The position numbers and the translations under genes were made by a program. Shown here piece by piece: positions 26,360 through 41,598 of a DNA stretch of 64,000 nucleotides. The notes beneath the pieces are model-generated. The model saw nothing but the letters and a program-made list of their open reading frames with translations. It made no database searches and was not told where the DNA came from. How positions within the stretch are numbered: the stretch's first letter is position 1; every line of letters begins with the position of its first letter. The stretch is from the NCBI GenBank assembly GCA_963812135.1, contig CAWETU010000001.1:448001-512000 (forward strand), written 5' to 3'. The DNA comes from Vulcanimicrobiota bacterium. GTDB lineage: Bacteria > Vulcanimicrobiota > Vulcanimicrobiia > Eremiobacterales > Eremiobacteraceae.

Positions 26360-26420
26360 CCCACTTTACAAACAGCCGATAAGTGGGGTATAGTGGGGCA
26401 AAGTGGTTCACCGTGGGGAT
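26360..26420 (+). promoter_or_regulatory. dcw promoter with MraZ-binding direct repeats
   Basis: TTTACA (26365)-18 nt-TATAGT (26389); GTGG(G/T) boxes at 26383, 26393, 26403, 26413 with a 10-bp period. Confidence 0.85.
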
Positions 26421-26433
26421 TGGAACCTCTGTT

Positions 26434-26874
26434 ATGACCGCGCTCCCGAAGTTCACGGGACAGTTCGAACATTCTCTGGACGAGAAGGGTCGTTTGACCA
26501 TCCCGGCCCGTTTTCGCGCGCGCCTTGGCGACCACTTCGTTTTGACGATCGCGCCGCCCGAACCGTGCCTGGCCATGTATCCGGAATCGGCGTGGTCGGA
26601 TTTTTGCGCCAAGCTGGAAGCCGCGCCGCGCAAGGACGCGCAGTATCGCAGCTTCGTCCGCCATCTTTTCGCCCACACGGACGAGGTCACGCTGGATGGC
26701 CAGGGCCGTCTGCTCATCCCACCTACGCTGCGGGAACATGCTCAGCTCGATCGCGACACGGTGCTCGTCGGAGCGCTCACGCGCATCGAGCTCTGGTCCG
26801 CGGATGGCTGGCGCAAAGCCAGCGGTGCGCCGGAGCGCATGGCCGATTTGATGACCGAGCTTGGACTCTACTAG
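26434..26874 (+). CDS. mraZ: Transcriptional regulator MraZ
   Basis: F.GQFEHSLDEKGRLTIPARFR; LDGQGRLLIP; RIELWS. Confidence 0.96.
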   Translation: MTALPKFTGQFEHSLDEKGRLTIPARFRARLGDHFVLTIAPPEPCLAMYPESAWSDFCAKLEAAPRKDAQYRSFVRHLFAHTDEVTLDGQGRLLIPPTLREHAQLDRDTVLVGALTRIELWSADGWRKASGAPERMADLMTELGLY

Positions 26875-27823
26875 CCATGTGCCGGTCATGCTCGCCGAGA
26901 CCCTCGACCTGCTGCTGCCGGCCGCAAGCGAAGGTGCGCCTCGCAAAAGTTCGACTAGCGAGCATCCGCTGTTCGTCGATTGCACCTTCGGCGCAGGCGG
27001 ACACACCCAAGCGTTACTCGATCGAGTTCCCGGCTCGCGCGTCATCGCGCTCGACGCCGACCCGAACGCAGTGGCGCGGGCGGAGGAGCTTGCTCGCAAG
27101 TACCCCCGCCGCGTCACCCCGATCCACGCCAACTTCGCCGAGCTTGGCCCAAAGCTCGCTTCCATTGGAGTCAGCGACGTGAACGGCATCATGTACGATC
27201 TCGGTCTGTCGTCGCTGCAGCTCGCTGACGAGGCGAGAGGCTTCGCGTTCGCCGGCACCGGCGAGCTCGATATGCGCCTGGATCCAACCTCCGACGCCGC
27301 AACCGCTGCACAGTTGCTCGCGACCGCCAAAGAAGGCGAGATCGCGGACATCATCTTCGAATTCGGCGACGAGCGCAACGCGCGGCGCATCGCGCGTCAG
27401 ATCGTCAGGCGTCGGGAACGCTCGCCGTTGCGCACGACGTCGGATCTGGTGGCGGCGGTGCTCTCCGCGCAACCGCGCGCGACGCGCGGCCGGCGCAGTG
27501 CGCTGCATCCCGCGACGCGCACGTTTCTCGCGCTGCGCATGGCGGTCAACGCTGACCTCGAGAGCCTTGCGACGAGCTTGCAAGATGCGATCGCGTGCGT
27601 CGTACCCGGCGGACGGATCGCCGTGATCAGTTTCCACTCCGGCGAGGATCGCGTCGTCAAGCATCAATTCGCCGCATGGCGTCGCGCCGGCGTTGCGGAG
27701 TCGCTGACGCGCAAGCCGATGACGCCGACGCAGACGGAGATCGCCTCGAATCCACGCAGCCGGAGCGCCAAGCTTCGCGCGGTCGAGCGCGCGCACCATC
27801 CCGATCTGCCGAGGAGCGCCTGA
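26861..27823 (+). CDS. rsmH: 16S rRNA m4C1402 methyltransferase
   Basis: HVPVML.E, DCTFGAGGH, DLGLSSLQL, LDMR, HPATRTF.ALR, VISFHS.EDR, NPRSRSAKLR. Confidence 0.97.
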   Translation: MDSTSHVPVMLAETLDLLLPAASEGAPRKSSTSEHPLFVDCTFGAGGHTQALLDRVPGSRVIALDADPNAVARAEELARKYPRRVTPIHANFAELGPKLASIGVSDVNGIMYDLGLSSLQLADEARGFAFAGTGELDMRLDPTSDAATAAQLLATAKEGEIADIIFEFGDERNARRIARQIVRRRERSPLRTTSDLVAAVLSAQPRATRGRRSALHPATRTFLALRMAVNADLESLATSLQDAIACVVPGGRIAVISFHSGEDRVVKHQFAAWRRAGVAESLTRKPMTPTQTEIASNPRSRSAKLRAVERAHHPDLPRSA

Positions 27824-27825
27824 CC

Positions 27826-28266
27826 GTGCCCGCCGCGCACGCATACAAGCTCGAATTCGACCGCCGCTTGGCCCCGCCGTCGCGCACGGCCCGCGCCGCG
27901 CGCCCAACCAGCCGCGCCGCGCGCCGCAAGAGCATGTCGACGGCACGCATCGTCGCGCTCGTCGCCGCGCCGCTCATCATGTTGTTCGGCTACGTCGGAT
28001 TGACGGCAGAGCTCGCGGCGCAGACGTATCGGCTCAACGCCGATCAGACGCTCCAGGCACAGCTCGTGCAGACCGACGACGCGCTGCGCCAGCATCTCGC
28101 ACAAGTACAATCCGTCGCCAAGCTTGAAGCCGCGGCGGCCGCGCTGCACATGAAGGAACCGGCGCGCACCGCCGTCATCACGCTGCCGTCCGCAAGCACC
28201 AAGCCCACGACCACGGCCTTCGCCGCCCGACTCGCGAGCTTCAAGCGCTTGTTCTTCGCGCGCTGA
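27826..28266 (+). CDS. Cell division protein FtsL-like
   Basis: Position between rsmH and ftsI; basic N-terminus, one TM, coiled coil, LE..A...L.M..P; GAGGAG RBS. Confidence 0.7.
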   Translation: MPAAHAYKLEFDRRLAPPSRTARAARPTSRAARRKSMSTARIVALVAAPLIMLFGYVGLTAELAAQTYRLNADQTLQAQLVQTDDALRQHLAQVQSVAKLEAAAAALHMKEPARTAVITLPSASTKPTTTAFAARLASFKRLFFAR

Positions 28267-28287
28267 GCGCGCGCCGGCCTTGACGCC

Positions 28288-30078
28288 GTGAAGGAAAAGG
28301 AACGCAGCCGCCTCCGCGGGCGAGCTATCGCCGTCTTTTGGCTGTTCTTCATCGTCGCCGGCCTGCTCGGCGTCCGCCTCTACGTCGTACAAGTACGCGA
28401 AGGCGCCGCGCTCGCGTCGATCGCGGTCGATCAACATCGCGCGGAATATCCGGTCAGCGGACGGCGCGGCCGTGTCGTCGACAGGTTCGGTACCGTGTTC
28501 GCGGGCACGTCACCGGCGGTGCAAATATTTGCGCAACCGCCCGACGTCACCGATCCGCACGCCGAAGCGCTCGCGCTCGCCCCGTTGCTGCGCGAACCGG
28601 CGCCGCTCATCGAGCGCCAGCTCACCGAGAAGACGACGTTCGTCTATCTCGGACGCATGCTGCCCAAAGCGCTGGGCGCGAGCGTCGAAGCGCTCGGTCT
28701 TCCAGGCATCGGCACGAGCGACGAGCCGACCGGTTTGCGCATCGATCCGCAAGGTCGGATCGGCTCCACGGTCATCGGCTTCACCGGCATCGACAACCAA
28801 GGGCTCGCGGGCATCGAAGTGTCGTTCAACGACGTGCTCGCAGGCAAGGCGGGCCAAGTGGTCGAGGAGACCGACAGCCAGTTGCGGCCATTGCCGTTCG
28901 GCCGGCGCGTGGTGCACGAGGCGGTCACGGGCGACACGGTCGTGCTCACTCTCGATCGATCGCTGCAGCTCGCGGCCGAAGACGTGCTCGCGAAGACGGC
29001 GTCGACGACCGGCGCGCGTAGCGCCAGCGCGATCGTCATGCGTGCCGATACCGGCGAGATCCTCGCGCTTGCGAACTGGCCCAACTTCGATCCGAATCAT
29101 TACGCCGCATTCCCGCAAGATTCGTATAAGAACCGGGCGATCGCCGATCCCTACGAGCCGGGCTCGACGTTCAAAGTCATCACCGCGACCGCCGCGATCG
29201 ATTCGGGCCGCGTGTCACTCGACGACACCTTCCCCGCTGAGAACGTCATCGACATCGGCGGCTACGTCATCCACAACGCCGACGACGGACTCATGCCCTC
29301 AGGCCATACGCGCGAAACGCTAAGCGACATCGTCACTTTCTCCCACAACGTCGGCGCAGCCGAAGTCGCGCTGCGCGTCGGCAAGAAGACGATGGGCGAA
29401 TATATCAAGCGTTTCGGACTCGACGACGTCAGCGGCATCGATCTGCCGGGCGAGAGCCCTGGCATCATCGACACGCCCGATCATTGGTATGGCTCGCGTG
29501 AGGCGACGATCGCGTTTGGCCAGGGCGTGTCGGTGACCGCGCTTGCGCTGGCCCGCGCCTATGCGGCGATCGCCAATGGCGGCCGCCTGATGAAACCGCT
29601 CATCGTGCGCGAGGTGCTGGATCCCGACGGGCGGGTCGTCACCCGCTACGAGCCTGAGACGGTGCGTCGGGTGATGCGCCCGCAGACGGCGGCAGCGCTG
29701 CTCGCGATGCTGCGTAACGTCGTCAAGAAAGGCACCGGCACGAACGCGGCGATCGCCGGCTACGCGGTCGCGGGCAAGACCGGTACCGCCGAAATCGTCG
29801 CGCACGGCGAATACCAACCCGGCGAATACATCGCTTCCTTCATAGGCATCGTGCCGGCGGATCGACCGCAGTACGTCGTATTGGTCAACGTCGAGCGGCC
29901 GCGCGGCCTGTATTACGGCGGCTTGGTGGCGGCGCCGGCGTTCCGCGAGCTCGCCCGGCGCGTCTTGTGGCGCGAGGGCGTGCTTCCGCAACGCCCGGTG
30001 AGCGCGCTGACGGAGAACGCACCCCCGCGCGAGGCGCCGGCTCCCGCTCGGCGGAATACGTCTCCGAAACATCCATGA
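28288..30078 (+). CDS. ftsI: Class B penicillin-binding protein (FtsI/PBP3)
   Basis: RG...DR.G, GLAGIE, EPGSTFK (SxxK), SHN (SxN), KTGTA motifs. Confidence 0.93.
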   Translation: MKEKERSRLRGRAIAVFWLFFIVAGLLGVRLYVVQVREGAALASIAVDQHRAEYPVSGRRGRVVDRFGTVFAGTSPAVQIFAQPPDVTDPHAEALALAPLLREPAPLIERQLTEKTTFVYLGRMLPKALGASVEALGLPGIGTSDEPTGLRIDPQGRIGSTVIGFTGIDNQGLAGIEVSFNDVLAGKAGQVVEETDSQLRPLPFGRRVVHEAVTGDTVVLTLDRSLQLAAEDVLAKTASTTGARSASAIVMRADTGEILALANWPNFDPNHYAAFPQDSYKNRAIADPYEPGSTFKVITATAAIDSGRVSLDDTFPAENVIDIGGYVIHNADDGLMPSGHTRETLSDIVTFSHNVGAAEVALRVGKKTMGEYIKRFGLDDVSGIDLPGESPGIIDTPDHWYGSREATIAFGQGVSVTALALARAYAAIANGGRLMKPLIVREVLDPDGRVVTRYEPETVRRVMRPQTAAALLAMLRNVVKKGTGTNAAIAGYAVAGKTGTAEIVAHGEYQPGEYIASFIGIVPADRPQYVVLVNVERPRGLYYGGLVAAPAFRELARRVLWREGVLPQRPVSALTENAPPREAPAPARRNTSPKHP

Positions 30079-31562
30079 CGAATCCGATGCCGACGCTGCT
30101 CCGGCGCCTGCTCGCCGGAGTTGCTGACGCCCGTGTGAGCGGGGATCCCGACGTCCTCATAACTTCGGTGAGCATCGACTCGCGCCGCATCGAGCGCGGG
30201 GGTCTCTTCGCCTGTCTGCGCGGCCTGCGCGACGACGGTCACGCGCACGCGCGCGAGGCCATCGCCGCCGGCGCGGCCGCCGTGCTGGCCGAGCGGGATC
30301 TCGATATCGGCACCGCGTCGCTGGTCGTGGTGCCGTCGGTGCTCGCGTCGCTGTCGCCGATTGCCGCCGAGCTGTGGGCGCGCCCGGCGAATTCGCTCGT
30401 GTGCGTCGGCGTCACGGGGACGAACGGCAAGACGACGACCACGCATCTTTTTGAATCCATCGCAGCGGCGGCGGGCCGCTCGTTCGGTCTCATCGGAACG
30501 CTCGGCGCGCGCTTGGGCGACAAGTTTTCCGTCGACCTCGACCACACGACCCCGTATGCGCACGACCTTCAAGCGTTGCTCGCGCGCTTTCGCGCGGCGG
30601 GTGCGAACGGCGCCGTGCTCGAGGTCTCAAGCCATGCGCTTGCGATGCATCGCATCGACGACGTCGAGTTCGACGTCACAGCGCTTACCAATGTCACGCA
30701 CGATCATCTCGATTTCCACGGCAGTTTCGAGGAGTACGCGAAGACCAAGCGGCGACTTTTCGATCTAGCGCGGCACAACGAGACCAAGGCGCCGGGCACG
30801 TGCGTCATCAATCTCGATGACCCCGAAGGTCGCCGGATCGCGGCGGAGCTGCCGTCGGCGCTGACCTATTCGATCGCGAGCCCGGACGGCGCGCTGCGCG
30901 CCGTCGATGTGGAGCTGTTCGCCGACGGTTCGCGCTTCCGAGTGCCGGCGCTCCGAGCCGAGCCGTTCACGATGCGGTTGCCCGGTCCGTTCAACGTGGC
31001 CAATGCGATGGCGGCGATCGGCGCAGCGTCGGCGCTCGAGTTCGACGTCGACGCGATCGCGCAGGGCCTGCTGTCGGTCACGACCGTGCCTGGGCGCATG
31101 TCGCAAGTGCCGGCAGAACATATCGGCGTGTATGTCGACTACGCTCACACGCCGGACGGATTGCGCAACGTGTTGCAAGCGGCGCGCGCGCTCACGCAAC
31201 ACCGCGTCGTGTGCGTGTTCGGCTGCGGTGGCGACCGCGACGCGCTCAAGCGGCCGGTGATGGGCCGCATCGCGCGCGAGTTGGCGGATCACGTCGTGCT
31301 GACCAACGACAATCCGCGCTTTGAGGATCCCCAACGCATCGTCAACGACGTGCTCGCCGGATTGGAAGGCGACGGCGCATCCTATACTGTGGTGCTCGAT
31401 CGGGCGCTCGCGATCGAAAACGCTATCGCCGAAGCCGAACCGGGCGATGTCGTCGTCATCGCAGGCAAAGGCCACGAGTCATATCAGCTCGTGCGCGACG
31501 AGCGCTTGCCGTTCTCCGATGTGAGCACGGCCGAGGCGGCCATCCGTAAGGTGGGCGCGTGA
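30075..31562 (+). CDS. murE: UDP-MurNAc-tripeptide synthetase (meso-DAP type)
   Basis: GVTGTNGKTTT, EVSSH, DHLDFH, DYAHTPD, GCGGDRD, DNPR, AGKGHE. Confidence 0.97.
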   Translation: MTNPMPTLLRRLLAGVADARVSGDPDVLITSVSIDSRRIERGGLFACLRGLRDDGHAHAREAIAAGAAAVLAERDLDIGTASLVVVPSVLASLSPIAAELWARPANSLVCVGVTGTNGKTTTTHLFESIAAAAGRSFGLIGTLGARLGDKFSVDLDHTTPYAHDLQALLARFRAAGANGAVLEVSSHALAMHRIDDVEFDVTALTNVTHDHLDFHGSFEEYAKTKRRLFDLARHNETKAPGTCVINLDDPEGRRIAAELPSALTYSIASPDGALRAVDVELFADGSRFRVPALRAEPFTMRLPGPFNVANAMAAIGAASALEFDVDAIAQGLLSVTTVPGRMSQVPAEHIGVYVDYAHTPDGLRNVLQAARALTQHRVVCVFGCGGDRDALKRPVMGRIARELADHVVLTNDNPRFEDPQRIVNDVLAGLEGDGASYTVVLDRALAIENAIAEAEPGDVVVIAGKGHESYQLVRDERLPFSDVSTAEAAIRKVGA

Positions 31563-33778
31563 ACAGGTTGACGCTGTCGCGCTTTCTCGAAGCGTCAGGC
31601 GGCATGCTCGCCGGCGGCGAACTCGACGGCGAGCTGCCGTTTGTCCCCAGCACCGACTCGCGGACGTTGCGCCCCGGCGAGACGTTCGTCGCCTTGCGCG
31701 GCCCGAATTTCGACGGCCATCAATATGTGAAGGCGGCGCTCGAGGCCGGTGCGGTCGCGGTGGTGGTGGACCGGGCCGACGCGTTGCCGGTCGATGGCAC
31801 GGTGCCGGCGGTCATCGTCGACGATACGAACGCCGCATATCTGCGCGGCGCCGCCGCGGCACGGCGGCTGGCGTCGGGCACGATACTCGTGGGCGTCACC
31901 GGCAGCGCCGGCAAGACGACCACCAAAGCGTTCGCCGCGCAGCTGATCGGCCGGGTGCGGCGCGTGATCGCGACGCCGATGAACGAGAACAACGAGCTCG
32001 GCGTGGCCAAGCTGTGCTACGCGCTCGACGACAGCGTCGAGATCGCGATCGCGGAGTTTGGCGCGCGCCACCCGGACGAGATCGCGCAACTCGTCGAGAT
32101 GGCCGCGCCGGATGTCGGAGTGCTCGTCAACATCGGCGAGTCCCATTTGGAGTTCTTCGCCGATCGCGAGCAGCTCGCGCGCACGAAATTCGCGATCTTC
32201 GGTGCGGGCGCGCGCCCAGTGTGCAATGCCGCGGATGAGTGGACGCGCAAACTCGCGGCTGAGGCGGGCATCGTCGAGCGTGCCTTGTGGGTGCGGCTGT
32301 GCGGTGAGCCGGAGTTGGCGGGCTTGATGCTTGAAGCCGGCGTGCCGCGCGACGGACGCGTGGCGCTTTCGCTCGGCGCGTCACACGCGTTCGCGCCGTG
32401 GCATCTGATCGGCGAACATCATCTACGCGACGCGCTGCTGGCGGTGGGCGCAGCGCTGCAATGCGGCGTGCGCTTCGAAGACGCGATTGAAGGCGTTGGC
32501 GATCTGCGCTTGCCGCCCGGACGTTTTGAGCTGCACTCGCTGCCGAGCGGCGCTACCGCGGTGTATGACGCATATAACGCGAGCCCGACTTCAATGCGCC
32601 ATGCGTTTAGCGCATTCGCATCGCTGCCCGCGGCGCGGCGCATCGCGGTGCTGGGCAGCATGGCCGAGCTCGGGGCGGACGCGGCAGCTGGTCACGAAAG
32701 CACGGGCGCAGCGGCGGCGAGCGCCGGACTCGACGCGCTCTATTGCGGCGGCGATCACGCGCAGACGATCGCGCGCGGCGCGCTCGACGCCGGCATGGCG
32801 CCGACATCCGTCCACACGTATGTCACAAATGCGGAAATCGCAAAAACCCTGCGGGACCAGCTGCGCGAAGGCGATGCGGTTCTGCTCAAGGGCTCTCGCG
32901 TGCAACGGATGGAGGAGATTCTCGACGCCTTGCTCTTGGCTGACGCGCCTCCGGCACCGAAAGCCGAGACGTCGGAGGCGGCGAGAGCCGCCGGAGCCGA
33001 GCCGGGGAGGGAGACTATTCCGATGATCCCCGGCGTTCTCGGCGCAGGTGCCGGAAGCGCGGCAGATGAGAACGAGCGACGATTTGATGTCCAGGTACCC
33101 GAGCTTCCCGCGCGCATCGTGGCATTACCCGTTCGGACTCCCATCGTCCGCCCCGGGGATGACATTGCGAGGCTCGTCGCAGATTGCGTGCGCGGAATAA
33201 CCGGACCTGACGATGTCATCTGCGTCGCTGAGACAGCGGTCGCCATCGCGCAGGGCCGTTCCATCCCAGCTGAAGCGATCCGTCCGGGTCGCTTAGCTCG
33301 CGTTCTTGCGGAACAAGCTGGCCCGTACGCGACGATGAGCCAACCCGAGTCGGTGCAACTCGTGATCGAACAAGTCGGCACTGCGAAGGTGCTTGCGGCC
33401 GCCGTCGCCGGCGCAGCCGGCAGACTCGTCGGCCGACGCGGCGACTTCTACCGTTTCCTGGGCGCGGCCGTCGCGGAGATCGACGGTTACACCGGCACGA
33501 TGCCGCCGTACGAGCGCCACATCGTGTTTGGTCCGGCGGATCCCGCGGGCGTTGCTGAGGGGATCGCGGCCGCTTGCGGCGCGCGAGCCGTCATCGTCGA
33601 CGCGAACGATCTGCACAAAGCCGAGATCCTCGGGGCGAGCGCCGGCGTCGATGCCGACACGGTCCGGCTGTGCCTGTTGAGCAATCCGCACGGCAACAGC
33701 GACCAGCAAACCCCGGTCGTGGTGTTGAAATACCGGCCGCTGTCGGACGCCCCGCGCCGCTCGCCGTTGCTCGCATGA
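31559..33778 (+). CDS. murF: MurF (about aa 1-460) fused through a low-complexity linker to a CofE-like (F420-0:gamma-glutamyl ligase family) domain
   Basis: MurF motifs TDSR, GPNFDGH, TGSAGKTTTK, DAYNASP, LG.MAELG, LLKGSR; C-terminal domain PVRTPIVRPGDD, AETAVAIAQGR, GDFYR, IDGYTGTMPPY, IVDANDL, NPHGNSDQQTP. Confidence 0.9.
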   Translation: MNRLTLSRFLEASGGMLAGGELDGELPFVPSTDSRTLRPGETFVALRGPNFDGHQYVKAALEAGAVAVVVDRADALPVDGTVPAVIVDDTNAAYLRGAAAARRLASGTILVGVTGSAGKTTTKAFAAQLIGRVRRVIATPMNENNELGVAKLCYALDDSVEIAIAEFGARHPDEIAQLVEMAAPDVGVLVNIGESHLEFFADREQLARTKFAIFGAGARPVCNAADEWTRKLAAEAGIVERALWVRLCGEPELAGLMLEAGVPRDGRVALSLGASHAFAPWHLIGEHHLRDALLAVGAALQCGVRFEDAIEGVGDLRLPPGRFELHSLPSGATAVYDAYNASPTSMRHAFSAFASLPAARRIAVLGSMAELGADAAAGHESTGAAAASAGLDALYCGGDHAQTIARGALDAGMAPTSVHTYVTNAEIAKTLRDQLREGDAVLLKGSRVQRMEEILDALLLADAPPAPKAETSEAARAAGAEPGRETIPMIPGVLGAGAGSAADENERRFDVQVPELPARIVALPVRTPIVRPGDDIARLVADCVRGITGPDDVICVAETAVAIAQGRSIPAEAIRPGRLARVLAEQAGPYATMSQPESVQLVIEQVGTAKVLAAAVAGAAGRLVGRRGDFYRFLGAAVAEIDGYTGTMPPYERHIVFGPADPAGVAEGIAAACGARAVIVDANDLHKAEILGASAGVDADTVRLCLLSNPHGNSDQQTPVVVLKYRPLSDAPRRSPLLA

Positions 33779-34737
33779 CGTTCACGCCGTTCTTCTCGAT
33801 CACGCTCGCGTTCGGTCTCGGCGCGATCGCGGCCGCACTCGTCGTTCCCGTGCTGATCGCCTGGCAGCGCCGGCATGCGCTCGGCCAACAGATCTATGAA
33901 GACGGGCCGGCATCGCACGCCGTGAAGCAAGGCACGCCCACCATGGGCGGCGTCGCGTTCGCGCTCGCCGCCATCATCGGAGCGCTCGTGCCGCCGATGG
34001 ACTGGTCGTGGCGCCTGCCAATCTTGTGCCTTGTCATAGCCGCTGCGGCGATCGGCTTCACCGATGACTATCTCAAACTGATCAGACAGCGCGCGCTGGG
34101 TTTGCGCGCGCGTTGGAAGTTCGGGTTGCTGGTGCTCGTCGCGATCGGCTTCGTGTGGTGGACATCGGCCTATCACCCGTTTGCCTCGGTCTGGTTCACC
34201 GGCGTCGTCGCGATGCCGCCCTGGTTGTGGGCGCTGTTGGGTGTGTGCGCGATCGTCGGCGCCGCCAACGCCGTGAATCTGACCGACGGTCTCGATGGCT
34301 TAGCAGCCGGAACCGCGATCCCGCCGCTCTTGCTGCTGGGTTTCTTGTTCGCCGGAATGATCCCGGCGGCGGTGGCCGGCAGCTGCACCGGCTTCCTTTA
34401 TTATAACCGGCACCCGGCTCGCATCTTCATGGGCGACACCGGCTCGCTCGCGCTGGGCGCGCTGCTCGGCGGCCTCGCGATCGAATACAATTTCCTGTTG
34501 CTGCTGCCCATCATCGGCATCGTCTTCGTCATCGAGGCGCTCTCCGTGATCGCGCAGGTGATCGGTTTCAAAACGACCGGCAAACGGATCCTTAAGATGA
34601 GTCCGCTGCATCATCACCTCGAGATGTCGGGCTGGCCGGAGCAGCGGATCACGATCGTCTTCGGCATTGTCTCGTTCTGCGCCACCTTCGGCGCCTACGT
34701 CCTCTTGTTGCTGACGTTGCGAGGCTCCGAGCTGTAA
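33775..34737 (+). CDS. mraY: Phospho-N-acetylmuramoyl-pentapeptide transferase
   Basis: H..KQGTPTMGG, GF.DDYLK, NAVNLTDGLDGL, FMGDTGS, PLHHHLE. Confidence 0.97.
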   Translation: MTFTPFFSITLAFGLGAIAAALVVPVLIAWQRRHALGQQIYEDGPASHAVKQGTPTMGGVAFALAAIIGALVPPMDWSWRLPILCLVIAAAAIGFTDDYLKLIRQRALGLRARWKFGLLVLVAIGFVWWTSAYHPFASVWFTGVVAMPPWLWALLGVCAIVGAANAVNLTDGLDGLAAGTAIPPLLLLGFLFAGMIPAAVAGSCTGFLYYNRHPARIFMGDTGSLALGALLGGLAIEYNFLLLLPIIGIVFVIEALSVIAQVIGFKTTGKRILKMSPLHHHLEMSGWPEQRITIVFGIVSFCATFGAYVLLLLTLRGSEL

Positions 34738-36174
34738 ATGCCGAACGACGCAGCAGTGAATCTCGTAGAAGGCGACCGGGCGCTGATCATCGGCGTCGGC
34801 CGCAGCGGCATGGCCACCGCGGCCGTGCTGCGCGACCGCGGCCTCCGCGTCGCCGCCTACGACGACAAACCGCCCGAACAGCTCACCGCGCAACGCGCGG
34901 AGCTCGCTCGGCTCGACGTCGAGCTCGTCGACAAAGACGCCCTTACCGCTGCGACGTCGGACACCGACGTCGCCATTTTATCGCCCGGCGTGCCGCCCAA
35001 CAATCCGGCCGTGCTCCAGATCCAGCGAGCAGGCGTGCCGGTCATCGCGGAGATCGAAGCCGCGTATCGCATCGCCAAGGCGCCGATCATCGCGATCACG
35101 GGAAGCAAGGGCAAATCGACCACCACCGCGCTGACCGGGCACTTGCTGCGCAGCGCAGGCGCGCGCGCGCGGACCGGCGGCAACATCGGCAACCCGCTTA
35201 TCCGCGAAGCCGCCGCAGCGGCCGCGGACGAATGGCTCGTCGCCGAGGTCTCGAGCTTTCAGCTCGAAGCGATCAGCACGTTCCACCCACGCGTCAGCGT
35301 CATGCTCAATCTCTCGCCGGATCACCTGGACCGCTATCCGTCGATGGAAGAATACCGCGAAGCGAAGCTGCGCATTTTCGCCAACCAGGGCGAAGGCGAT
35401 TGGTTCGTCGGCAATGCCGACGATGCGGCGATCCGCGAATTGCACGACGGACCGGTGAAGCGCTTGCGCTGCGATAGCGCGTGGTTCTCCCTGTATGGGG
35501 CGGATATCGCCGACGTCACGTCCACCGACGGGTGGATCGTGCGGCGCACGCGCGGCAAGCGCGCGGCGAGCACCCGGTTCACGCCGGTCATCGCCATAAG
35601 CGACCTCAAGATCAAAGGCGCGCACAACGTGGCGAATGCGATGGCTGCGTATTTGGCGGCGTCGCTGGCGCTCTTGCGCGGCACGGTGATCGGCGCGCAC
35701 GACGATGCGCTCGTCGAAGGATTGCGTACCTTCGAACCGCTCGCGCACCGCTTGCAAACGGTCGCCACTGCCGCCGGCGTCGTCTGGGTCGACGACAGCA
35801 AGGCCAGTAATCCGGATGCTGTTGTCAAGGCGCTGCATGCGTTTGACGGCCCGATCATCCTGATCGCCGGCGGGCGCAGCAAACGGACCGACTTCGCCGG
35901 GCTCGCGAAAGCTGCGTCGGACCGCGCCAAGCTCATCGTCTTGATCGGCGAGAGCGCGCGGGAGATCGGATCGCTGGTGGAACGCGGCCCGATCGTTTAC
36001 GCGGATTCGATGACCGCTGCCGTGGCCGCCGCCGCCGAGGCCGCTGCCCCCGGCGACGTCGTGCTGCTCTCGCCTGGCTGCTCTTCCTTTGATATGTTCG
36101 ACAGCGCGGAGCAGCGAGGCGATGCGTTCGTCGCCGCCGTTCGCGGCCTGCTCGGCGAAACGGCCATCGCATGA
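34738..36174 (+). CDS. murD: UDP-MurNAc-L-Ala:D-Glu ligase
   Basis: G.GRSG, SPGVP, TGSKGKSTT, GGNIG.P, EVSSFQL, DHLDRY, DDSKASN, LLSPGCSSFDMF. Confidence 0.97.
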   Translation: MPNDAAVNLVEGDRALIIGVGRSGMATAAVLRDRGLRVAAYDDKPPEQLTAQRAELARLDVELVDKDALTAATSDTDVAILSPGVPPNNPAVLQIQRAGVPVIAEIEAAYRIAKAPIIAITGSKGKSTTTALTGHLLRSAGARARTGGNIGNPLIREAAAAAADEWLVAEVSSFQLEAISTFHPRVSVMLNLSPDHLDRYPSMEEYREAKLRIFANQGEGDWFVGNADDAAIRELHDGPVKRLRCDSAWFSLYGADIADVTSTDGWIVRRTRGKRAASTRFTPVIAISDLKIKGAHNVANAMAAYLAASLALLRGTVIGAHDDALVEGLRTFEPLAHRLQTVATAAGVVWVDDSKASNPDAVVKALHAFDGPIILIAGGRSKRTDFAGLAKAASDRAKLIVLIGESAREIGSLVERGPIVYADSMTAAVAAAAEAAAPGDVVLLSPGCSSFDMFDSAEQRGDAFVAAVRGLLGETAIA

Positions 36175-37397
36175 CTGGCGAGCGGCGAGCGCCGGACATG
36201 ACGCTGCTCATAGCGGCCGGACTGCTGACCGCGATCGGCGCGATCATGGTCTTCTCGGCATCGTCCGTCGTCGGCATCACCCGCTATCACGACGCGACGC
36301 ACTTCTTCAAACGCGAGATCATCTGGGTCGTGCTCGGTGCAGCCGCATGCTGGATCGGGATGAAGCTCGACTACGGCGCGCTGCGTCGCGCGGCGCCGTG
36401 GCTGCTCGGCGTCGCGGTCGTGCTGCTCGTCGGCGTGCTGTTCCCGCATTTCGGCACCATCGAAGGCGGCGCGCGCCGCTGGTACGAGTTCGGCCTGTTC
36501 TCGTTCGAACCGTCCGAGTTCGCAAAGGTCGCGCTGATCATCTTCTTGGCCAAGCTGTTGGCGGACCGCGAGGACAGCGCACGCGATTTCAGCGCGATCG
36601 GCTTCCCCGCGCTGTTCTGGGTCGGCGTGTGCTTCATGCTCGTGCTGCGCCAACCGGACCTCGGCACCGCGACGCTGTTCTTGATGATCGCCTTCGTCAT
36701 GCTGTTCGCCGCTGGTGCTCGCCTCAGCCACCTCGCGATCGGCGTTGCGGTCGCGGTGCCTGCGCTGCTCGCGTTCGTCTATGCGAGTCCGTACCGGCGC
36801 GCGCGCTTCACCGCGTTCTTAGACCCAAATGCGGATCCCAAAGGCACCGGCTATCACATCTTGCAGTCGCTCTATGGCTTGGGCTCGGGCGGGATCTTCG
36901 GCGTCGGCCTCGGCCAAAGCCGGCAGAAGTTCGGCTACCTGCCCGAGCAGTACACCGACTTCATCTATTCGGTGCTGGGCGAAGAGCTCGGCTTCATCGG
37001 CGCGGCGGCGGTCCTCGTGCTGTTCTTGCTTTTCGCATACCGTGGACTGCGCATCGCGATGAAGGCCGAAGACCGCTTCGGCTTCTTCCTCGCGGTCGGC
37101 ATCACCGCAGCGATCGCGCTGCAAGCCTTCATCAATATCGGCGTGGTGACGTCGACATGGCCCGTCACGGGCGTGCCGCTGCCGTTCATCAGCTACGGCG
37201 GCACGTCGCTGGTCATGAGCCTGTTCGGAGTCGGCCTGCTGGCCGGCATCTCGCGCGGTCGATCGCGGGCGGCGCTTGCAGCCGACGAACGCACGAGAGG
37301 ATCTCGCGGTGCGTATTCTGCTCACCGGCGGCGGCACGGGCGGTCACCTATACCCCGCGCTGTCACTAGCGCAGGCGCTCTCCGGCGCGCCCGCTGA
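36171..37397 (+). CDS. ftsW: SEDS peptidoglycan polymerase FtsW
   Basis: GARRW, PSEFAK, QPDLGT, GYH..QS...GSGG, LPEQYTDFI, GVPLPFISYGG; C-terminal tail overlaps murG by 89 bp. Confidence 0.95.
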   Translation: MTGERRAPDMTLLIAAGLLTAIGAIMVFSASSVVGITRYHDATHFFKREIIWVVLGAAACWIGMKLDYGALRRAAPWLLGVAVVLLVGVLFPHFGTIEGGARRWYEFGLFSFEPSEFAKVALIIFLAKLLADREDSARDFSAIGFPALFWVGVCFMLVLRQPDLGTATLFLMIAFVMLFAAGARLSHLAIGVAVAVPALLAFVYASPYRRARFTAFLDPNADPKGTGYHILQSLYGLGSGGIFGVGLGQSRQKFGYLPEQYTDFIYSVLGEELGFIGAAAVLVLFLLFAYRGLRIAMKAEDRFGFFLAVGITAAIALQAFINIGVVTSTWPVTGVPLPFISYGGTSLVMSLFGVGLLAGISRGRSRAALAADERTRGSRGAYSAHRRRHGRSPIPRAVTSAGALRRAR

Positions 37398-38523
37398 TCC
37401 CGGCGTCTGCTTGCCGGACGACGGCGAGCCACGCCTTGTCTTCCCCAACGACGCGCACGAAGTGCTCTTCGTCGGCACGCGTGGCGGGATGGAAACGGAG
37501 ATCGTCGCGCGCGCGAACGTACCCGCCGCGTACGTGCGCAGCCGGCCGCTTTCGCGCACGTCGCTGACCGCTGCGGCGGGCGGCGTCGCCGCCAACATGC
37601 TCGGCACCGGCGAAGCGATGCCGATCGTCCAGAAATTCAAACCGCACGTCGTGATCGCCACCGGCGGCTACGCAAGCGTGCCCGTCGTGATGGCCGCGGC
37701 TGCGTTGCGCGCATCGGGTTCGCTGCGCGGCACGAAGATCGTCTTGCTGGAGCCGAACGTGGAGCCCGGGCGCGCGAACCGCTTCATGGCACACGCTGCC
37801 AACGAGGTGTGGGGCGCGTTCGACGAGACAGCCGCGTTCTTCGGGCGCAAGTTCGTGACGACCGGCATTCCTGTGCGCGCGGAGATCTACGCGCGCCCGA
37901 CCCAGGTCGAAGCGCGGCGCAGCCTCGGGCTTGATCCCAAACTCATGACGGTGATCGTGTTCGGGGGAAGCCAGGGCGCACGCAGCATCAACGTGGCAGT
38001 GAGCGGCATGGTCGCGCGGCGCCGCTTGCCGCCCGACTTCCAGCTGCTCCACATCGCCGGCGAACGCGATTTCACGTGGATGGCCGCCGAGCGCAAAGTT
38101 GAGGCCAACACGAACCGCTATCAGCTCGTGCCGTACCTCGATCGCATGGAGCTCGCATACTCGGCGGCCGATGTCGCGGTCTGTCGCGCGGGCGCATCGA
38201 CGCTTGCCGAGCTCGCCGTCGTCGGTCTGCCGTCGATTCTCATCCCGTATCCGCACGCGACCGACGACCACCAGCGCAAGAACGCGGACGTGTTCGCGCG
38301 CCACAACGCGGCGCTGCTGATCGAGGACAAGAAGCTCGATTCGGATTCATTGTATTGGGCGCTCGTCGACGTGCTCACGCCCGACAAGCTCGCCGCGATG
38401 CGCTTCGGCGCCGCGTCCCTGTCGCACCCGCGTGCGCTGCAGACGATGATCGAGCGAATCGTCAAAGGCGAGATCGGCAAAAAACAGGCGCGCGTGGCCG
38501 CCAAGAAAAAGGCAGCCACATGA
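37309..38523 (+). CDS. murG: Lipid II GlcNAc transferase MurG
   Basis: TGGGTGGHLYP, TGGYAS.P, E.N..PG.AN, GGSQGA, RAGAST, HQ.KNA. Confidence 0.96.
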   Translation: MRILLTGGGTGGHLYPALSLAQALSGAPADPGVCLPDDGEPRLVFPNDAHEVLFVGTRGGMETEIVARANVPAAYVRSRPLSRTSLTAAAGGVAANMLGTGEAMPIVQKFKPHVVIATGGYASVPVVMAAAALRASGSLRGTKIVLLEPNVEPGRANRFMAHAANEVWGAFDETAAFFGRKFVTTGIPVRAEIYARPTQVEARRSLGLDPKLMTVIVFGGSQGARSINVAVSGMVARRRLPPDFQLLHIAGERDFTWMAAERKVEANTNRYQLVPYLDRMELAYSAADVAVCRAGASTLAELAVVGLPSILIPYPHATDDHQRKNADVFARHNAALLIEDKKLDSDSLYWALVDVLTPDKLAAMRFGAASLSHPRALQTMIERIVKGEIGKKQARVAAKKKAAT

Positions 38524-40451
38524 TCCACTCCGCCTCCATTATCTTCACGCTGTTGCTCGCGCTACCGCTCATGGCGCTCGCGTCCCCGGTGGACGTCGCT
38601 CCGTATCTGCAGATCAAGGGGCAAAGCGGACCATCGCTTTCGCCGGACGGCACGCGCGTGGCGTTCAGCTTCGCGAAATCGGGCGTCTCTCAGGTCTGGG
38701 TCGCGCCGCTCGCGGGCGGCGATCCCGTCGAGCTCACTCGCGGTCCGGAACGCGCGGACTTCAAAGCGTGGTCGCCCACGCGCGCCGACGAGATCCTCTT
38801 CGGCCGCGATCTCGGCGGCGACGAGAACTGGCAGATCTGGATGTCGCGTCCGCACGATACTAGCGAAGCGCCGTTCATCGACGAGCCCGGCGTCCGTCAC
38901 CTTTTCGGCGGCTATTCATTTAACGGCGACAAGATCGCGTTTGCCTCGAACCGGCGCAACCGCGAATTCTTCGACGTGTACACCGCGACCGGAGAATTTC
39001 TATACATCCTCAACCAGTCCGAGCACTGCGCCCACCCACCGTGCGGCCCGCTGCCGGCGCTGGAGTCGGCGCGCATGGTCATGCAGGGCGACGGCGACAA
39101 CCAGCCCATCGCGTGGTCGCATGACGGCAAGACCTTGCTCGTCAGCATGCGCAAAGATAACTTTAACAACGATCTGCTGCTCGTCGACCTCGATCACGAC
39201 ACGTACATGGGCCGGTTGCTGACCGCGCACCCAGGCAACGCGGATTTCGAGAGCTGCGCGTTTTCGGGCGACGACTCAAAGGTCTATTGCGTGAGCGACT
39301 ACGGCGGCCGCGAGCATCGCGGCAGAGCCGTCATCGATCTACGAGGCGGCGCGCCGATCCACTTCCTCCCCGATCCTGCGCACGATGTCGAGTCACTGAC
39401 CCTGTCGCGCGACGGATCGAAAATGGCCTACGTGCGCAACCGCGATGGCTACGGCGACCTCATCGCCGTCGACGTCGCGACCGATGCGGTCATCGCATCG
39501 CCGCACATGCCGGCGGGCGTCGTAGCATCGCCTGTGTTCTCGGCAAAGGGTGACAAGCTTGCGTTCGAGTTCTCAGGCCCTTCGCACCCGAGCGCGATCT
39601 GGACCTATGATTTTGCGACCAAACAGACGCAGCAGATCACCACGCCGGAGCTCGCGGGAATCGCGCCGAGCACGTTCGTCGAGCCGCAGCTCATCACGTA
39701 CAGGTCGTTCGACGGCCTGAGCGTGCCGGCGTGGTACTACAAACCGCGAGGCGCCTCCGGGAATCTGCCGGTCATCATCGACGTCCATGGCGGCCCGGAA
39801 GCGCAGGCGCGCCCAGCGTTCAATCCGATCATCCAATTCTTCCTCGCGAGCGGCTACGCGGTGCTCGTGCCGAACGTGCGCGGCAGTTTCGGCTATGGCA
39901 ACACCTATCTGCATCTCGCCGACGTGCGCAAGCGGCTTGACTCGGTCAAGGATCTACACGCCGCACATGACTGGCTGATCGCCCAAGGCGGCGCCGATCC
40001 CAAGCGCATCGCGCTTTACGGCGGCTCGTACGGCGGCTACATGGTGCTCGCCGGCCTCACCGAGTTTCCTGACGACTGGGCGGCCGGCGTCGACGTCGTC
40101 GGCATCTCCAATTTCGTCACGTTCCTTGAACACACGAGTCCGTACCGCCGCGCGAATCGCGAAGCCGTCTACGGATCGCTTGCGAACGACCGCCAGTTCC
40201 TCGACTCGATCTCACCGCTGAACCACGTCGACCGCATCAAGGCGCCGCTGATCATCTTCATGGGGCAGAACGATCCGCGCGTGCCCGCGTCCGAAGGCCA
40301 GCAGATGGCCGACGCGCTCAAGGCGAAAGGCGTGCCCGTCGAGCTGACCATTTTCCCGAACGAGGGCCACGGCATCGCGCGCGACGAGAACCGCATCACC
40401 GCCTACACGCAGATCGCGCAGTTCCTCGGCACGCATCTCGCCGTGCCGTAG
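38520..40451 (+). CDS. Secreted S9 family peptidase (dipeptidyl aminopeptidase/acylaminoacyl peptidase)
   Basis: Signal peptide; beta-propeller; VHGGP, PNVRGS.GYG, GGSYGG, NDPRVP, EGHG; ATGA overlap with murG. Confidence 0.93.
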   Translation: MIHSASIIFTLLLALPLMALASPVDVAPYLQIKGQSGPSLSPDGTRVAFSFAKSGVSQVWVAPLAGGDPVELTRGPERADFKAWSPTRADEILFGRDLGGDENWQIWMSRPHDTSEAPFIDEPGVRHLFGGYSFNGDKIAFASNRRNREFFDVYTATGEFLYILNQSEHCAHPPCGPLPALESARMVMQGDGDNQPIAWSHDGKTLLVSMRKDNFNNDLLLVDLDHDTYMGRLLTAHPGNADFESCAFSGDDSKVYCVSDYGGREHRGRAVIDLRGGAPIHFLPDPAHDVESLTLSRDGSKMAYVRNRDGYGDLIAVDVATDAVIASPHMPAGVVASPVFSAKGDKLAFEFSGPSHPSAIWTYDFATKQTQQITTPELAGIAPSTFVEPQLITYRSFDGLSVPAWYYKPRGASGNLPVIIDVHGGPEAQARPAFNPIIQFFLASGYAVLVPNVRGSFGYGNTYLHLADVRKRLDSVKDLHAAHDWLIAQGGADPKRIALYGGSYGGYMVLAGLTEFPDDWAAGVDVVGISNFVTFLEHTSPYRRANREAVYGSLANDRQFLDSISPLNHVDRIKAPLIIFMGQNDPRVPASEGQQMADALKAKGVPVELTIFPNEGHGIARDENRITAYTQIAQFLGTHLAVP

Positions 40452-40464
40452 CGACCGCGGCTGG

Positions 40465-41418
40465 CTAGTGGATGGCCAGCCCTGCCGTGTGGACGCTGCC
40501 GCCGAACGCCGCGATGGTGATGATCGTCGGAACGGGCGTGGTCGTGCTGAACGTCGAGGCTGCGTTCGGGAACAGGTACAGCATCGGATCCTGCAAGTTG
40601 CTCGCGTAAAGATTGCCGCTCGCGTCGAAGACGAGCTGTTCGCCGGTGAAGATCAACGTCACCGAATTGCCGAGATGCGTGCTGATCGGCCCGCCGCCGG
40701 CAGTTGGGGCGTTGAACCGATCGATGCTGCCGTCGTTCACGTTCACGGTATACAGGTTGCCCGAGGCGTCAAACGCGAGCCCGTTGGGCTGGCTGGACCC
40801 GGTGAGCGGCGTTCCCGTCGGCAACTGCCCGGTCGTGAAAGGCGGATTGAATATCTCGATCGCCCCCGAGCCAAAAACCGATTTCGACACGTACAGATTG
40901 CCCGCGGCGTCGAACGCGATACCGCCGGGAGCCGTGACGCTTGAAATCGTCACCACGGGCGCCGGGGTGATGGAGCCGCTGAACGGTCCGACGAATTCGT
41001 ACACTTTGTTGGTGCCGCCATCCCCGACCCACAGGTTCCCAGTCGCGTCGAACGCGATCGCAACAGGGTTCATGGAGCCGGGGATGTTGATGGTCGCGAA
41101 CGGCGTGCTGGCGCTGGTCAGCGGGAGCGTATAGCCCACCACCTCGGCGCTCGTTGCATCGTTGACCGCCCAAAGATTGCCTTGATGATCGAACGCCAGG
41201 CCCACCGGGAATTTCAATCCGGCCGGCGTGACCACCGACGTCGGAACGGAGCCGCCAGATAACGGCAGGGAGAAGATGGCGACTTGTGGGGTGCCGGTGA
41301 AGCCGCTGACGTAAATGGACTGCCCCGAGCCCGGCGGCGGCCCAGGATTGGTCGACGCGGCAGAACAGCCTATTGACGTCAGGATTATGATTCCGGCCAA
41401 GAGCCACAAGCGCTTCAT
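40465..41418 (-). CDS. NHL/beta-propeller repeat lipoprotein
   Basis: Lipobox SIGC; five to six repeats of P.G(L/I)AFD..GNL(W/Y). Confidence 0.8.
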   Translation of the reverse strand: MKRLWLLAGIIILTSIGCSAASTNPGPPPGSGQSIYVSGFTGTPQVAIFSLPLSGGSVPTSVVTPAGLKFPVGLAFDHQGNLWAVNDATSAEVVGYTLPLTSASTPFATINIPGSMNPVAIAFDATGNLWVGDGGTNKVYEFVGPFSGSITPAPVVTISSVTAPGGIAFDAAGNLYVSKSVFGSGAIEIFNPPFTTGQLPTGTPLTGSSQPNGLAFDASGNLYTVNVNDGSIDRFNAPTAGGGPISTHLGNSVTLIFTGEQLVFDASGNLYASNLQDPMLYLFPNAASTFSTTTPVPTIITIAAFGGSVHTAGLAIH

Positions 41419-41598
41419 TGAACGAGTCTCCCTACTAGTGGACGATCGCACAAAGCGACGGGAACGCAGAGCCGCGCCGTTCCCCGCGTTGGGTACACGA
41501 GTCCTGGCGAGACGACGGCTGATCGAGGTATCAGACTGCGCTCGCTCACACTCGAAGCAAAGGGGCCGAATGCCGGGACACCTAAATCAACAGTCCGG

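Follow-up and report, generated by a model that had tools for sequence, protein, structure and literature searches.

A CofE-fold domain joined to MurF in one genus of Vulcanimicrobiota is a candidate amide ligase of peptidoglycan precursors

The window analysed here, a stretch of 64,000 nucleotides from a Vulcanimicrobiota genome, carries a dcw cluster in which MurF continues in frame into a domain with the fold of CofE. We propose, with a probability of about 0.6, that this domain acts not on F420 but as a cytoplasmic amide ligase on a peptidoglycan precursor. The subfamily to which it belongs probably carries out a decoration of the cell-wall peptide for which the enzyme was missing, because its relatives in bacteria, cyanobacteria, and wall-bearing plant chloroplasts recur beside cell-wall genes. 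Links to murI, fusions to muramoyl amidase or AsnB, and retention by plants and algae whose chloroplasts have peptidoglycan independently point to peptidoglycan. A literature search, covering few subscription journals, returned no paper tying the CofE-like family to peptidoglycan.

The fusion gene and its locus

The general features of the locus are as follows.

26383..44855, + strand: dcw cluster (mraZ, mraW, ftsI, murE, the fusion gene, mraY, murD, ftsW, murG, two inserted genes, murC, murB, ddl)
29967..31562, + strand: murE, start not fixed (TIGR01085, 479 bits); its stop overlaps the fusion start
31559..33778, + strand: murF-CofE-like fusion gene, a single open frame of 739 aa
31652..32932, + strand: MurF domain, residues 32-458 (TIGR01143 above cut-off; three Mur Pfam domains)
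32933..33097, + strand: linker of ~55 aa, rich in Ala/Pro/Gly/Glu, which varies among fused relatives
32962..33038, no strand assigned: 77-bp hairpin-forming palindromic repeat within the linker, with a further copy elsewhere in the genome
33098..33775, + strand: CofE-fold domain, residues 514-739, a subfamily of PF01996/COG1478
33775..34737, + strand: mraY (TIGR00445, 271 bits); its start overlaps the fusion stop

An earlier note on this DNA had described MurF and a CofE-like domain in one reading frame, and profile searches agree: within the 739-aa frame TIGR01143 scores 317.9 bits on the MurF domain (cut-off 288.6) and PF01996 (F420_ligase) matches residues 525-606 with 50.4 bits (cut-off 25). 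All six motifs quoted there for the C-terminal domain are found in the translation, and the frame does overlap murE at its stop (GTGA, 31559-31562) and mraY at its start (ATGA, 33775-33778). The linker repeat has an 89.6% copy on the opposite strand (G000 C1:50251-50327), and weaker copies too.

The full-length fused frame recurs in five of the seven genomes of the genus, and the fusion is thus not an assembly accident; a sixth genome is fused but interrupted by a contig end, and in the seventh (81% complete) the fusion is frameshifted. An assembly or read-through artefact is ruled out by the same full-length frame in sister genomes, and a separate protein initiated internally at 33023 is ruled out by the lack of this ATG in two of them.

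Fusion is not a class-wide trait, being seen at only 4 of 50 class loci; at the other 46 the CofE-like domain is a gene of its own between murF and mraY. Long open frames outside the genus, where checked, contain no fusions. The linkage of homologues to the dcw cluster is borne out, as the murF-mraY interval holds a CofE-like gene or domain at all 50 class loci (30/30 top-scoring and 20/20 lower-scoring). The fusion arose recently and at the level of the genus, and the stronger evidence is therefore the conserved gene position; taken by itself the fusion is a local oddity, valuable as one more pointer. The earlier note had argued for a peptidoglycan role from the fusion as a Rosetta stone; that role is backed by independent links in other lineages, but the weight placed on a genus-level fusion is not supported. 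An insertion that included the short repeat may have joined the CofE-like gene to MurF in this genus. MurF is likewise joined to a pathway neighbour in the MurE-MurF and MurF-Alr fusions PRK11929 and PRK11930, whereas the partner here is a CofE-fold domain. In other classes of the phylum none of 20 loci adjoins murF or mraY, and one adjoins ddl, which counts against the proposed role.

Structure and conservation of the CofE-fold domain

The CofE fold proposed in the note is supported by structure prediction (pLDDT 81.8), by Foldseek (2PHN, E 2.2e-10), and by VIA (2PHN, Z 14.4 over 179 residues, rmsd 3.2; next match Z 4.2), in addition to the Pfam search. Profile-profile comparison of the domain with CofE gives 97.4%. 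Domain residues E45, D129, D168, N170, D171, N196 and N200 are invariant in all 25 alignment rows, and Asp, Asn, Glu and Thr residues are invariant from bacteria through plants. Although the invariant Asp, Asn and Glu are present, their register against the metal- and GTP-binding residues of CofE is off by a few residues and is unreliable in the C-terminal half.

The gene behaves as a core gene: of 151 genomes of the phylum 149 have a match, as do all 121 high-quality ones (a count that includes the unpublished G128) and 82/82 genomes of the class, and at 48 of 48 loci the CofE-like domain is more conserved than MurF and MraY. Plasmids yielded no match to the subfamily, and two unannotated phage records match it. 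PF01996 matches three archaea only among 14 control genomes; this model misses many members of the subfamily, cyanobacterial ones included, so that the control is no test of distribution.

Relationship to F420 and folate ligases

The CofE-like domain is most probably neither an F420 nor a folate ligase, because the genome has FolC (TIGR01499, 339.9 bits, above cut-off) and no F420 pathway, and 38 relatives carry a true CofE as well. The CofE equivalogs give it 32.3–35.1 bits against a cut-off of 180.65 (TIGR01916) and 38.8–42.5 bits against 274 (PRK13293). The absence of cof and fbi genes noted earlier for the window extends to the whole genome (98.4% complete), in which we found no CofC, CofD, CofG or CofH; the matches are GlmU, YvcK, MqnC and MqnE proteins, on which the CofG model gives only weak scores. 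A true CofE is present in 39 of 151 genomes of the phylum and 0 of 82 of the class, and 38 of these 39 hold the CofE-like gene separately. That the window encodes a true F420-0:glutamate ligase, as the database label and the fold would have it, is scarcely credible against these scores and counts. The outcomes that the earlier note named as refuting its reading did not arise, so far as they can be computed.

The relationship is nonetheless one of fold: the domain resembles CofE and FbiB's N-terminal domain (2PHN, 2G9I, 7ULD), with the N-terminal nucleotide-binding half alignable by sequence, and acyl-phosphate chemistry is presumably common to both (PMC8498797). They differ between a conserved Asp and the last Pro, a stretch of 38-39 residues in the subfamily versus 64 in CofE, i.e. 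25 shorter. This appears to be where the CofE hairpin wraps F420 (PMC10861534). The C-terminal tail that holds F420 in CofE/FbiB is short in the subfamily, with different motifs, and CofE/FbiB belong to the F420 pathway whereas the subfamily occurs without that pathway and also coexists with CofE.

Glutamyl ligation to folate or another cofactor, by an enzyme lying in the dcw cluster by chance, would have a precedent in Chlamydia CT611 (FolC2), a COG1478 amide ligase of an F420-less organism that performs another ligation, replacing the missing FolC (PMC1971073). Five scattered loci of the subfamily, in other lineages, do have folate-related neighbours (pabABC at L167, FTHFS at L201, folD at L040 and L048, MetH-MTHFR at L031). 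However, CT611 by its description clusters with folate genes, whereas this genome has FolC and the gene lies among wall genes; all 50 class loci lie in dcw, the partner described below is predicted to be membrane-anchored, and angiosperms need folate, yet none is named among the 120 matches listed of 3181. We regard a folate role as improbable.

Neighbours, fusions and a one-helix partner in Bacillota

Among 54 Bacillota loci, which were hand-picked and have no background control, an amidase, a MurJ/SpoVB-like flippase or murI is fused or lies within 2.5 kb at 32; Amidase_3 alone accounts for 24, the flippase is a neighbour at 9, and an Orn/Lys/Arg decarboxylase is found at 2. Fusions among 79 representatives involve Amidase_3 (6), asparagine-synthase type AsnB (4) and polysaccharide deacetylase (1), with TPR, adenylate kinase, PlsY, CDP-alcohol transferase, M20 peptidase and GNAT as further partners. 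The fused amidase P0144 has no signal peptide and keeps its H/E/H/E motifs, as read by eye.

The gene is present in single copy in 120 of 121 Negativicutes genomes, the class-wide presence expected of a diamine transferase. At 48 of 80 Negativicutes loci murI lies 563-1194 nt upstream, and at 79 of 80 a one-helix partner gene is adjacent, whose product has a positive-inside bias. The partner's domain folds as an Ig-like beta-sandwich, whose structural matches (best Z 9.3) are so often nearly tied as to be uninformative; a profile search did not find the partner in the window's genome. Diamine transfer in Selenomonas is ATP-dependent, and, going by the title of a 1999 paper by Pfanzagl, transfer of this kind is membrane-associated and acts on lipid intermediates. 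In rows of the V. parvula membrane-extract supplement (PMC5491611), Vpar_0430 is murI, Vpar_0431 a one-helix protein and Vpar_0432 a COG1478 protein that is ~19x as abundant as MurI.

Negativicutes attach cadaverine or putrescine to the D-Glu alpha-carboxyl (PMC10628300, PMC5020339); this site of the Selenomonas/Veillonella diamine and the cyanelle N-acetylputrescine is the one proposed here (PMC5020339, PMC3334493). Such polyamination underlies the outer-membrane tether of Negativicutes, and the portions of the cited literature drawn on here name no gene for diamine or N-acetylputrescine transfer. For Negativicutes a diamine is an appealing reading; for the window's enzyme we infer both the amine and the acceptor carboxyl. 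The window's clade stands apart from the Negativicutes clade in the tree, in a position with support of 0.3, and the substrate is therefore not simply transferable.

The earlier note had framed the domain as a candidate transferase of diderm Terrabacteria, but the subfamily is not restricted to diderms: 75 of 111 Bacillota carriers lack Omp85, and 38 of 74 Omp85-bearing genomes lack a strong match. A role in SLH anchoring is also doubtful in this genome, which has an SLH porin, because it has CsaB for the SLH tether; in cyanobacteria and Thermus the outer membrane is reported to be tethered via pyruvylated polymers and not diamines (10.1101/2021.05.31.446380). MurT/GatD, which amidates D-Glu of lipid II, and AsnB/LtsA-type enzymes do a job like that proposed here, NTP-dependent amidation of a stem-peptide carboxyl, but are of unrelated fold, and the CofE-like domain has no glutaminase partner. 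Because MurT acts on this same carboxyl, the two were predicted to exclude each other, but across Bacillota they do not (MurT in 34/111 carriers versus 68/190 non-carriers; odds ratio 0.79, p 0.38), a point against the proposal; MurT_C was not found in this genome.

Cyanobacteria, algae and plants

At cyanobacteria-type loci a GNAT acetyltransferase is the next gene in five of nine, and mltG lies a few genes further on in the two scanned. The eukaryotic members are of this cyanobacterial type and, among the matches listed, come from M. pusilla CCMP1545, mosses, liverworts, Closterium, ferns, a lycophyte and a conifer; no glaucophyte is named among the 120 listed of 3181. These carriers overlap the lineages reported to retain a plastid peptidoglycan pathway (PMC4815162, PMC10784329, PMC9434261). 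Moss UDP-MurNAc-pentapeptide was reported to be of the plain DAP type, which counts against the proposal, and the modifier of chloroplast peptidoglycan in mosses is described as an open question (both PMC9434261). The van Baren supplements, in a search for F420, Tetraselmis, Pyramimonas and Pycnococcus, gave no entry. A member labelled Diacronema lutheri, a haptophyte, nests beside Chlorokybus in the tree.

Proposed function and alternatives

By analogy with CofE, the domain would use a nucleoside triphosphate and a divalent metal to convert a free stem-peptide carboxyl to an acyl phosphate and then to an amide with an amine. The likeliest site would be the D-glutamate alpha-carboxyl of the UDP-MurNAc-pentapeptide made by MurF, or of lipid I/II. 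A diamine or polyamine is tentatively our first choice of amine for the window's enzyme; failing that, it would be an amino acid or ammonia. The partner with one helix and a beta-sandwich, whether fused or encoded by the next gene, may in most lineages hold the enzyme at the inner membrane face; in this class, with no detectable partner, co-translation of the gene between murF and mraY may serve instead. More speculatively, the subfamily could be the enzyme that joins diamines to peptidoglycan D-glutamate, an old Terrabacteria-wide step represented by Vpar_0431/0432 in Veillonella, passed from cyanobacteria to chloroplasts, persisting among the plastid peptidoglycan genes of mosses, liverworts, ferns and conifers as a member so far overlooked, and coupled to MurF in this genus.

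Genes for recycling are rarely found both universally and in single copy. The near-universal single-copy occurrence in Negativicutes and in the class, together with the murI and murF-mraY links, which favour synthesis, thus makes it unlikely that the ligase serves peptidoglycan turnover, re-activating or re-ligating stem peptides freed by a partner amidase in an Mpl-like role that feeds MurF, even though the Amidase_3 associations, the intact motifs of the signal-less P0144, and the nearby mltG would suit such a role. An amine or amino acid might instead be ligated to another envelope molecule built on undecaprenyl phosphate, such as a secondary wall polymer or a lipid, with the dcw position reflecting a common carrier and timing. 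The flippase neighbours, the PlsY and CDP-alcohol transferase fusions, and the CsaB and SLH porin of this genome are compatible with this, as is qimC, a CofE-like gene of a Streptococcus wall-modification operon (PMC12803152) that may or may not belong to the subfamily. Retention in algae and plants along with plastid peptidoglycan and the direct fusions to MurF and muramoyl amidases argue against it, and we consider it quite unlikely.

The lysine and C-terminal glutamate positions of CofE, which we take from the A. fulgidus numbering, are not clearly kept, and the F420-wrapping hairpin is missing, as might be expected of a protein that retains the fold but, without catalysis, scaffolds or regulates the Mur/MraY machinery. 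Such a protein is very improbable given the residues invariant from bacteria to plants, a pattern typical of an active site.

Whichever amine is used, ligation to the wall peptide would change thousands of 'F420 ligase' labels and add a third fold to wall-peptide chemistry, beside the Mur ligases and ATP-grasp ligases. Single-copy candidates are available in tractable organisms, namely Vpar_0431/0432, Marchantia Mp2g07820 and Physcomitrium XP_024398868.

The MurF fusion and its dcw cluster

One reading frame in the window joins MurF, through a linker, to a C-terminal domain (residues 514-739) resembling CofE, the F420-0 glutamate ligase. The earlier note had claimed this frame and its overlaps with murE and mraY, and translation and domain matches confirm both. 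The features are listed below.

31559-33778 (+): murF-CofE-like fusion, 739 residues in a stop-free frame, beginning within the murE stop and finishing within the mraY start
Residues 32-458 of the fusion: MurF domain, scoring over the TIGR01143 cut-off
Residues 525-606 of the fusion: Pfam F420_ligase match, at less than one quarter of the CofE equivalog cut-offs
dcw cluster order: mraZ, mraW, ftsI, murE, fusion, mraY, murD, ftsW, murG, two inserted genes, murC, murB, ddl
38355-40451 (+): inserted gene between murG and murC, S9 peptidase with propeller
40465-41451 (-): inserted gene on the opposite strand, NHL-repeat protein

The nearest named homologues are from Ca. Eremiobacteraeota and are almost all stand-alone proteins of ~238 aa, in a search unable to reveal full-length fusions. 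The complete fused frame is present in five of the seven genomes of the genus; a sixth is also fused but runs off a contig edge, and the last is frameshifted, probably by sequencing error (G458 C2:469971-472118, genome 81% complete). The best-scoring 30 loci of the class, one of them from an unpublished genome (L008, G128), include four fused genes, all of the window's genus, and 26 in which a murF stop stands directly ahead of a stand-alone gene; no fused form occurs at 20 lower-scoring loci. murF lies upstream and mraY downstream in all 50 class genomes examined of 82, with aligned ends more than 250 nt from the gene at two loci. Because the fusion is confined to the genus while these flanks hold at every class locus examined, the fusion is a recent event that postdates the conserved position. 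Conserved gene position is thus stronger evidence than the fusion, from which the earlier note drew its Rosetta-stone argument; at the other class loci checked the domain is a separate gene.

The linker contains a 77-bp hairpin-forming element (window 32962-33038) whose second copy lies elsewhere in the genome. It belongs to a short palindromic repeat family also seen at C1:50251-50327 and C1:1366071-1366197 of the window's genome (G000). By eye, the linker of P0016, a metagenomic fusion protein, resembles this element in reverse, and the repeat inside the linker appears to be open in both orientations in different relatives.

Fold of the domain and its likely role

A model of the domain built from a 25-row alignment (pLDDT 81.8) has Archaeoglobus fulgidus CofE as its sole structural match (Foldseek E 2.2e-10, TM 0.59), in keeping with the fold proposed earlier. 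VIA gave Z 14.4 across 179 residues for the same protein, with a runner-up at Z 4.2, and the profile-profile probability against 12 true CofE proteins of the same phylum was 97.4%. The conserved Asp and last Pro are 38-39 residues apart in the subfamily but 64 in CofE, in which a long hairpin, R234 and F92 are described as holding F420 (PMC10861534); we infer that the absent stretch is this hairpin. D129, D168, N196, G199, P206 and G115 are invariant in 119/119 subfamily rows; the alignment to CofE, and so to its metal ligands, is out of register by a few residues. A distinct Bacillota family of 515-550 aa (L224, L225, L227, L228, L229) has a split CofE-like fold with a large insertion and a weak profile match.

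The domain is very unlikely to be an F420 ligase or a FolC2. It is the one PF01996 match in G000 (98.4% complete), and the absence of cof/fbi genes, noted earlier for the window, holds genome-wide; CofD-, CofH- and CofC-like matches turn out to be YvcK, MqnC, MqnE and GlmU. True CofE occurs in 39/151 genomes of the phylum, 38 of which also carry the subfamily gene, and in none of the window's class. Chlamydia CT611 is reported to stand in for FolC (PMC1971073); FolC is present in G000, so there is no gap for a CT611-like enzyme to fill. Folate neighbours at five subfamily loci count against a peptidoglycan reading. We put a wall or envelope role for the domain at about 0.85, a judgement, like the gradings that follow, and not a computed value. 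Amide ligation on the stem peptide is somewhat favoured; joining of a diamine or polyamine to D-Glu is an even bet for the Veillonella orthologue and a tentative proposal for the window's enzyme. A search of mainly open-access literature found no paper tying the subfamily to peptidoglycan.

Conservation and a putative membrane partner

Subfamily matches, one of them weak, occur in 149/151 phylum genomes, the other two being 67 and 75% complete. At 48/48 loci the domain shares more identity with the window than do MurF and MraY (medians 58, 42 and 48%, respectively). Proteins from the other classes measure ~400-430 aa and carry an N-terminal helix plus a 150-residue domain; the murF-mraY setting found at all 50 class loci was not seen there, neither of the two being beside the gene at any of 20 loci. 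Helix-partner forms from these classes, Negativicutes, cyanobacteria and plants cluster in the tree (support 0.87); amidase-linked forms are separate, and the window's class has no firm placement.

The gene is present as a single copy in 120/121 Negativicutes genomes. Among the best 80 of 564 loci, which are related by descent and not independent events, 79 have the N-terminal part as an adjoining gene of its own, with homology to the long forms. A glutamate racemase gene is found 563-1194 nt upstream at 48 of the 80 (66 have room for it), speD at eight and a histone-deacetylase-family gene at 26. Since murI-rph-rdgB is a common cluster in Firmicutes, the ligase-partner pair would be an insertion beside murI. 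In about one third of these loci (L056-L135) a hydantoinase/oxoprolinase and histone-deacetylase-family pair lies downstream, a possible acetyl-polyamine link. Records titled Bacteroidaceae, Paludibacteraceae and Fusicatenibacter (L103, L104, L108) have Negativicutes-type loci and are probably mistitled; the genome of L103 is placed in Bacillota.

Proteome tables for V. parvula give Vpar_0430 as murI, Vpar_0431 as a one-helix protein and Vpar_0432 as COG1478, with membrane-extract iBAQ values of 8.5e6, 9.1e7 and 1.6e8, respectively (PMC5491611). Lys/Arg residues are more numerous after the helix than before it in 20/26 Negativicutes partners, 79/81 cyanobacterial and 10/11 other long forms, with the opposite bias in none, which suggests from sequence that the enzyme is cytoplasmic and held at the membrane.

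Other bacteria

Scanning every representative at 50% identity yielded 1266 matches. Pfam analysis of 79 of the 150 listed, picked by length, revealed fused domains of TPR (~12), muramoyl-L-Ala amidase (6) and asparagine-synthase (4) type, and one fusion each to polysaccharide deacetylase, GNAT, PlsY, CDP-alcohol transferase, M20 peptidase, adenylate kinase and HD. Strong matches occur in 111/301 Bacillota genomes. At 32 of 54 Bacillota loci, hand-chosen on score and contig extent and counted without a background control, amidase (24), MurJ/SpoVB-like (9) or murI (6) genes are fused or within 2.5 kb. An Orn/Lys/Arg decarboxylase occurs at two of the 54, once in the order decarboxylase-amidase-ligase. 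The expected exclusion of MurT was not seen in Bacillota (34/111 carriers vs 68/190 non-carriers), and in five genomes MurT is 3-9 kb away from the gene; this fits a wall role but not a straight exchange at a single carboxyl. At L176 (G212), murJ-murT-gatD is ~3 kb from amidase and CofE-like genes. BlaI-type repressors adjoin NPLGQ-subclade members at L168, L236 and L238, the last two also with a BlaR1-type M56 gene, and L196 has the gene in a sporulation cluster, flanked by gpr and spoIIP.

The family is not restricted to diderms, the setting envisaged in the earlier note: 75/111 Bacillota carriers have no Omp85 and 38/74 Omp85 genomes have no strong match. G000 encodes an SLH-barrel protein, a CsaB that scores over its cut-off and an Orn/Lys/Arg decarboxylase; MurT_C was not found there. 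CsaB with SLH is described as the usual outer-membrane tether outside Negativicutes (10.1101/2021.05.31.446380), which counts against an SLH-anchoring role for the domain in G000. An OmpM/SlpA-like candidate of ~880 aa, with one SLH domain ahead of an extended beta-rich stretch whose last residue is Phe, lies at G000 C1:272241-274982 (-).

Cyanobacteria and plants

A GNAT acetyltransferase is the next gene in five of nine cyanobacterial-type metagenome loci (two of the five identical; downstream sequence available in six), followed by ruvX and mltG. Cyanelle peptidoglycan is reported to carry N-acetylputrescine (PMC3334493), which together with the GNAT neighbour provides a lead only.

Algal members listed are Micromonas pusilla CCMP1545, Pyramimonas, Pycnococcus, Pseudoscourfieldia, Chloropicon roscoffensis and Tetraselmis striata, and, among streptophytes, Mesostigma and Mesotaenium (presumably the names behind JGI tags), Chlorokybus, Klebsormidium and Closterium. 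Bryophytes (Marchantia, Riccia, Calypogeia, Physcomitrium, Ceratodon, Sphagnum) and vascular plants (Diphasiastrum, Adiantum, Ceratopteris, Cryptomeria) are also represented. The land-plant branch mirrors organism relationships and is nested among cyanobacterial sequences, with deep algal nodes lacking support, and several eukaryotic members have, by eye, transit-peptide-like N-terminal extensions. A full plastid peptidoglycan pathway is reported in mosses, M. pusilla and certain classes of prasinophytes, and reported lacking in M. commoda, Ostreococcus, Arabidopsis and red algae (PMC4815162); Chloropicon primus and Marchantia are further listed holders (PMC10784329). Among the 120 matches listed of 3181, none bears the name of an angiosperm, a red alga, Chlamydomonas or a glaucophyte, and the unnamed plant-like rows that were placed group with ferns, the conifer or basal streptophytes. 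The lack of these names is suggestive and no more. A record labelled Diacronema lutheri nests by Chlorokybus, which could reflect contamination or a transfer.
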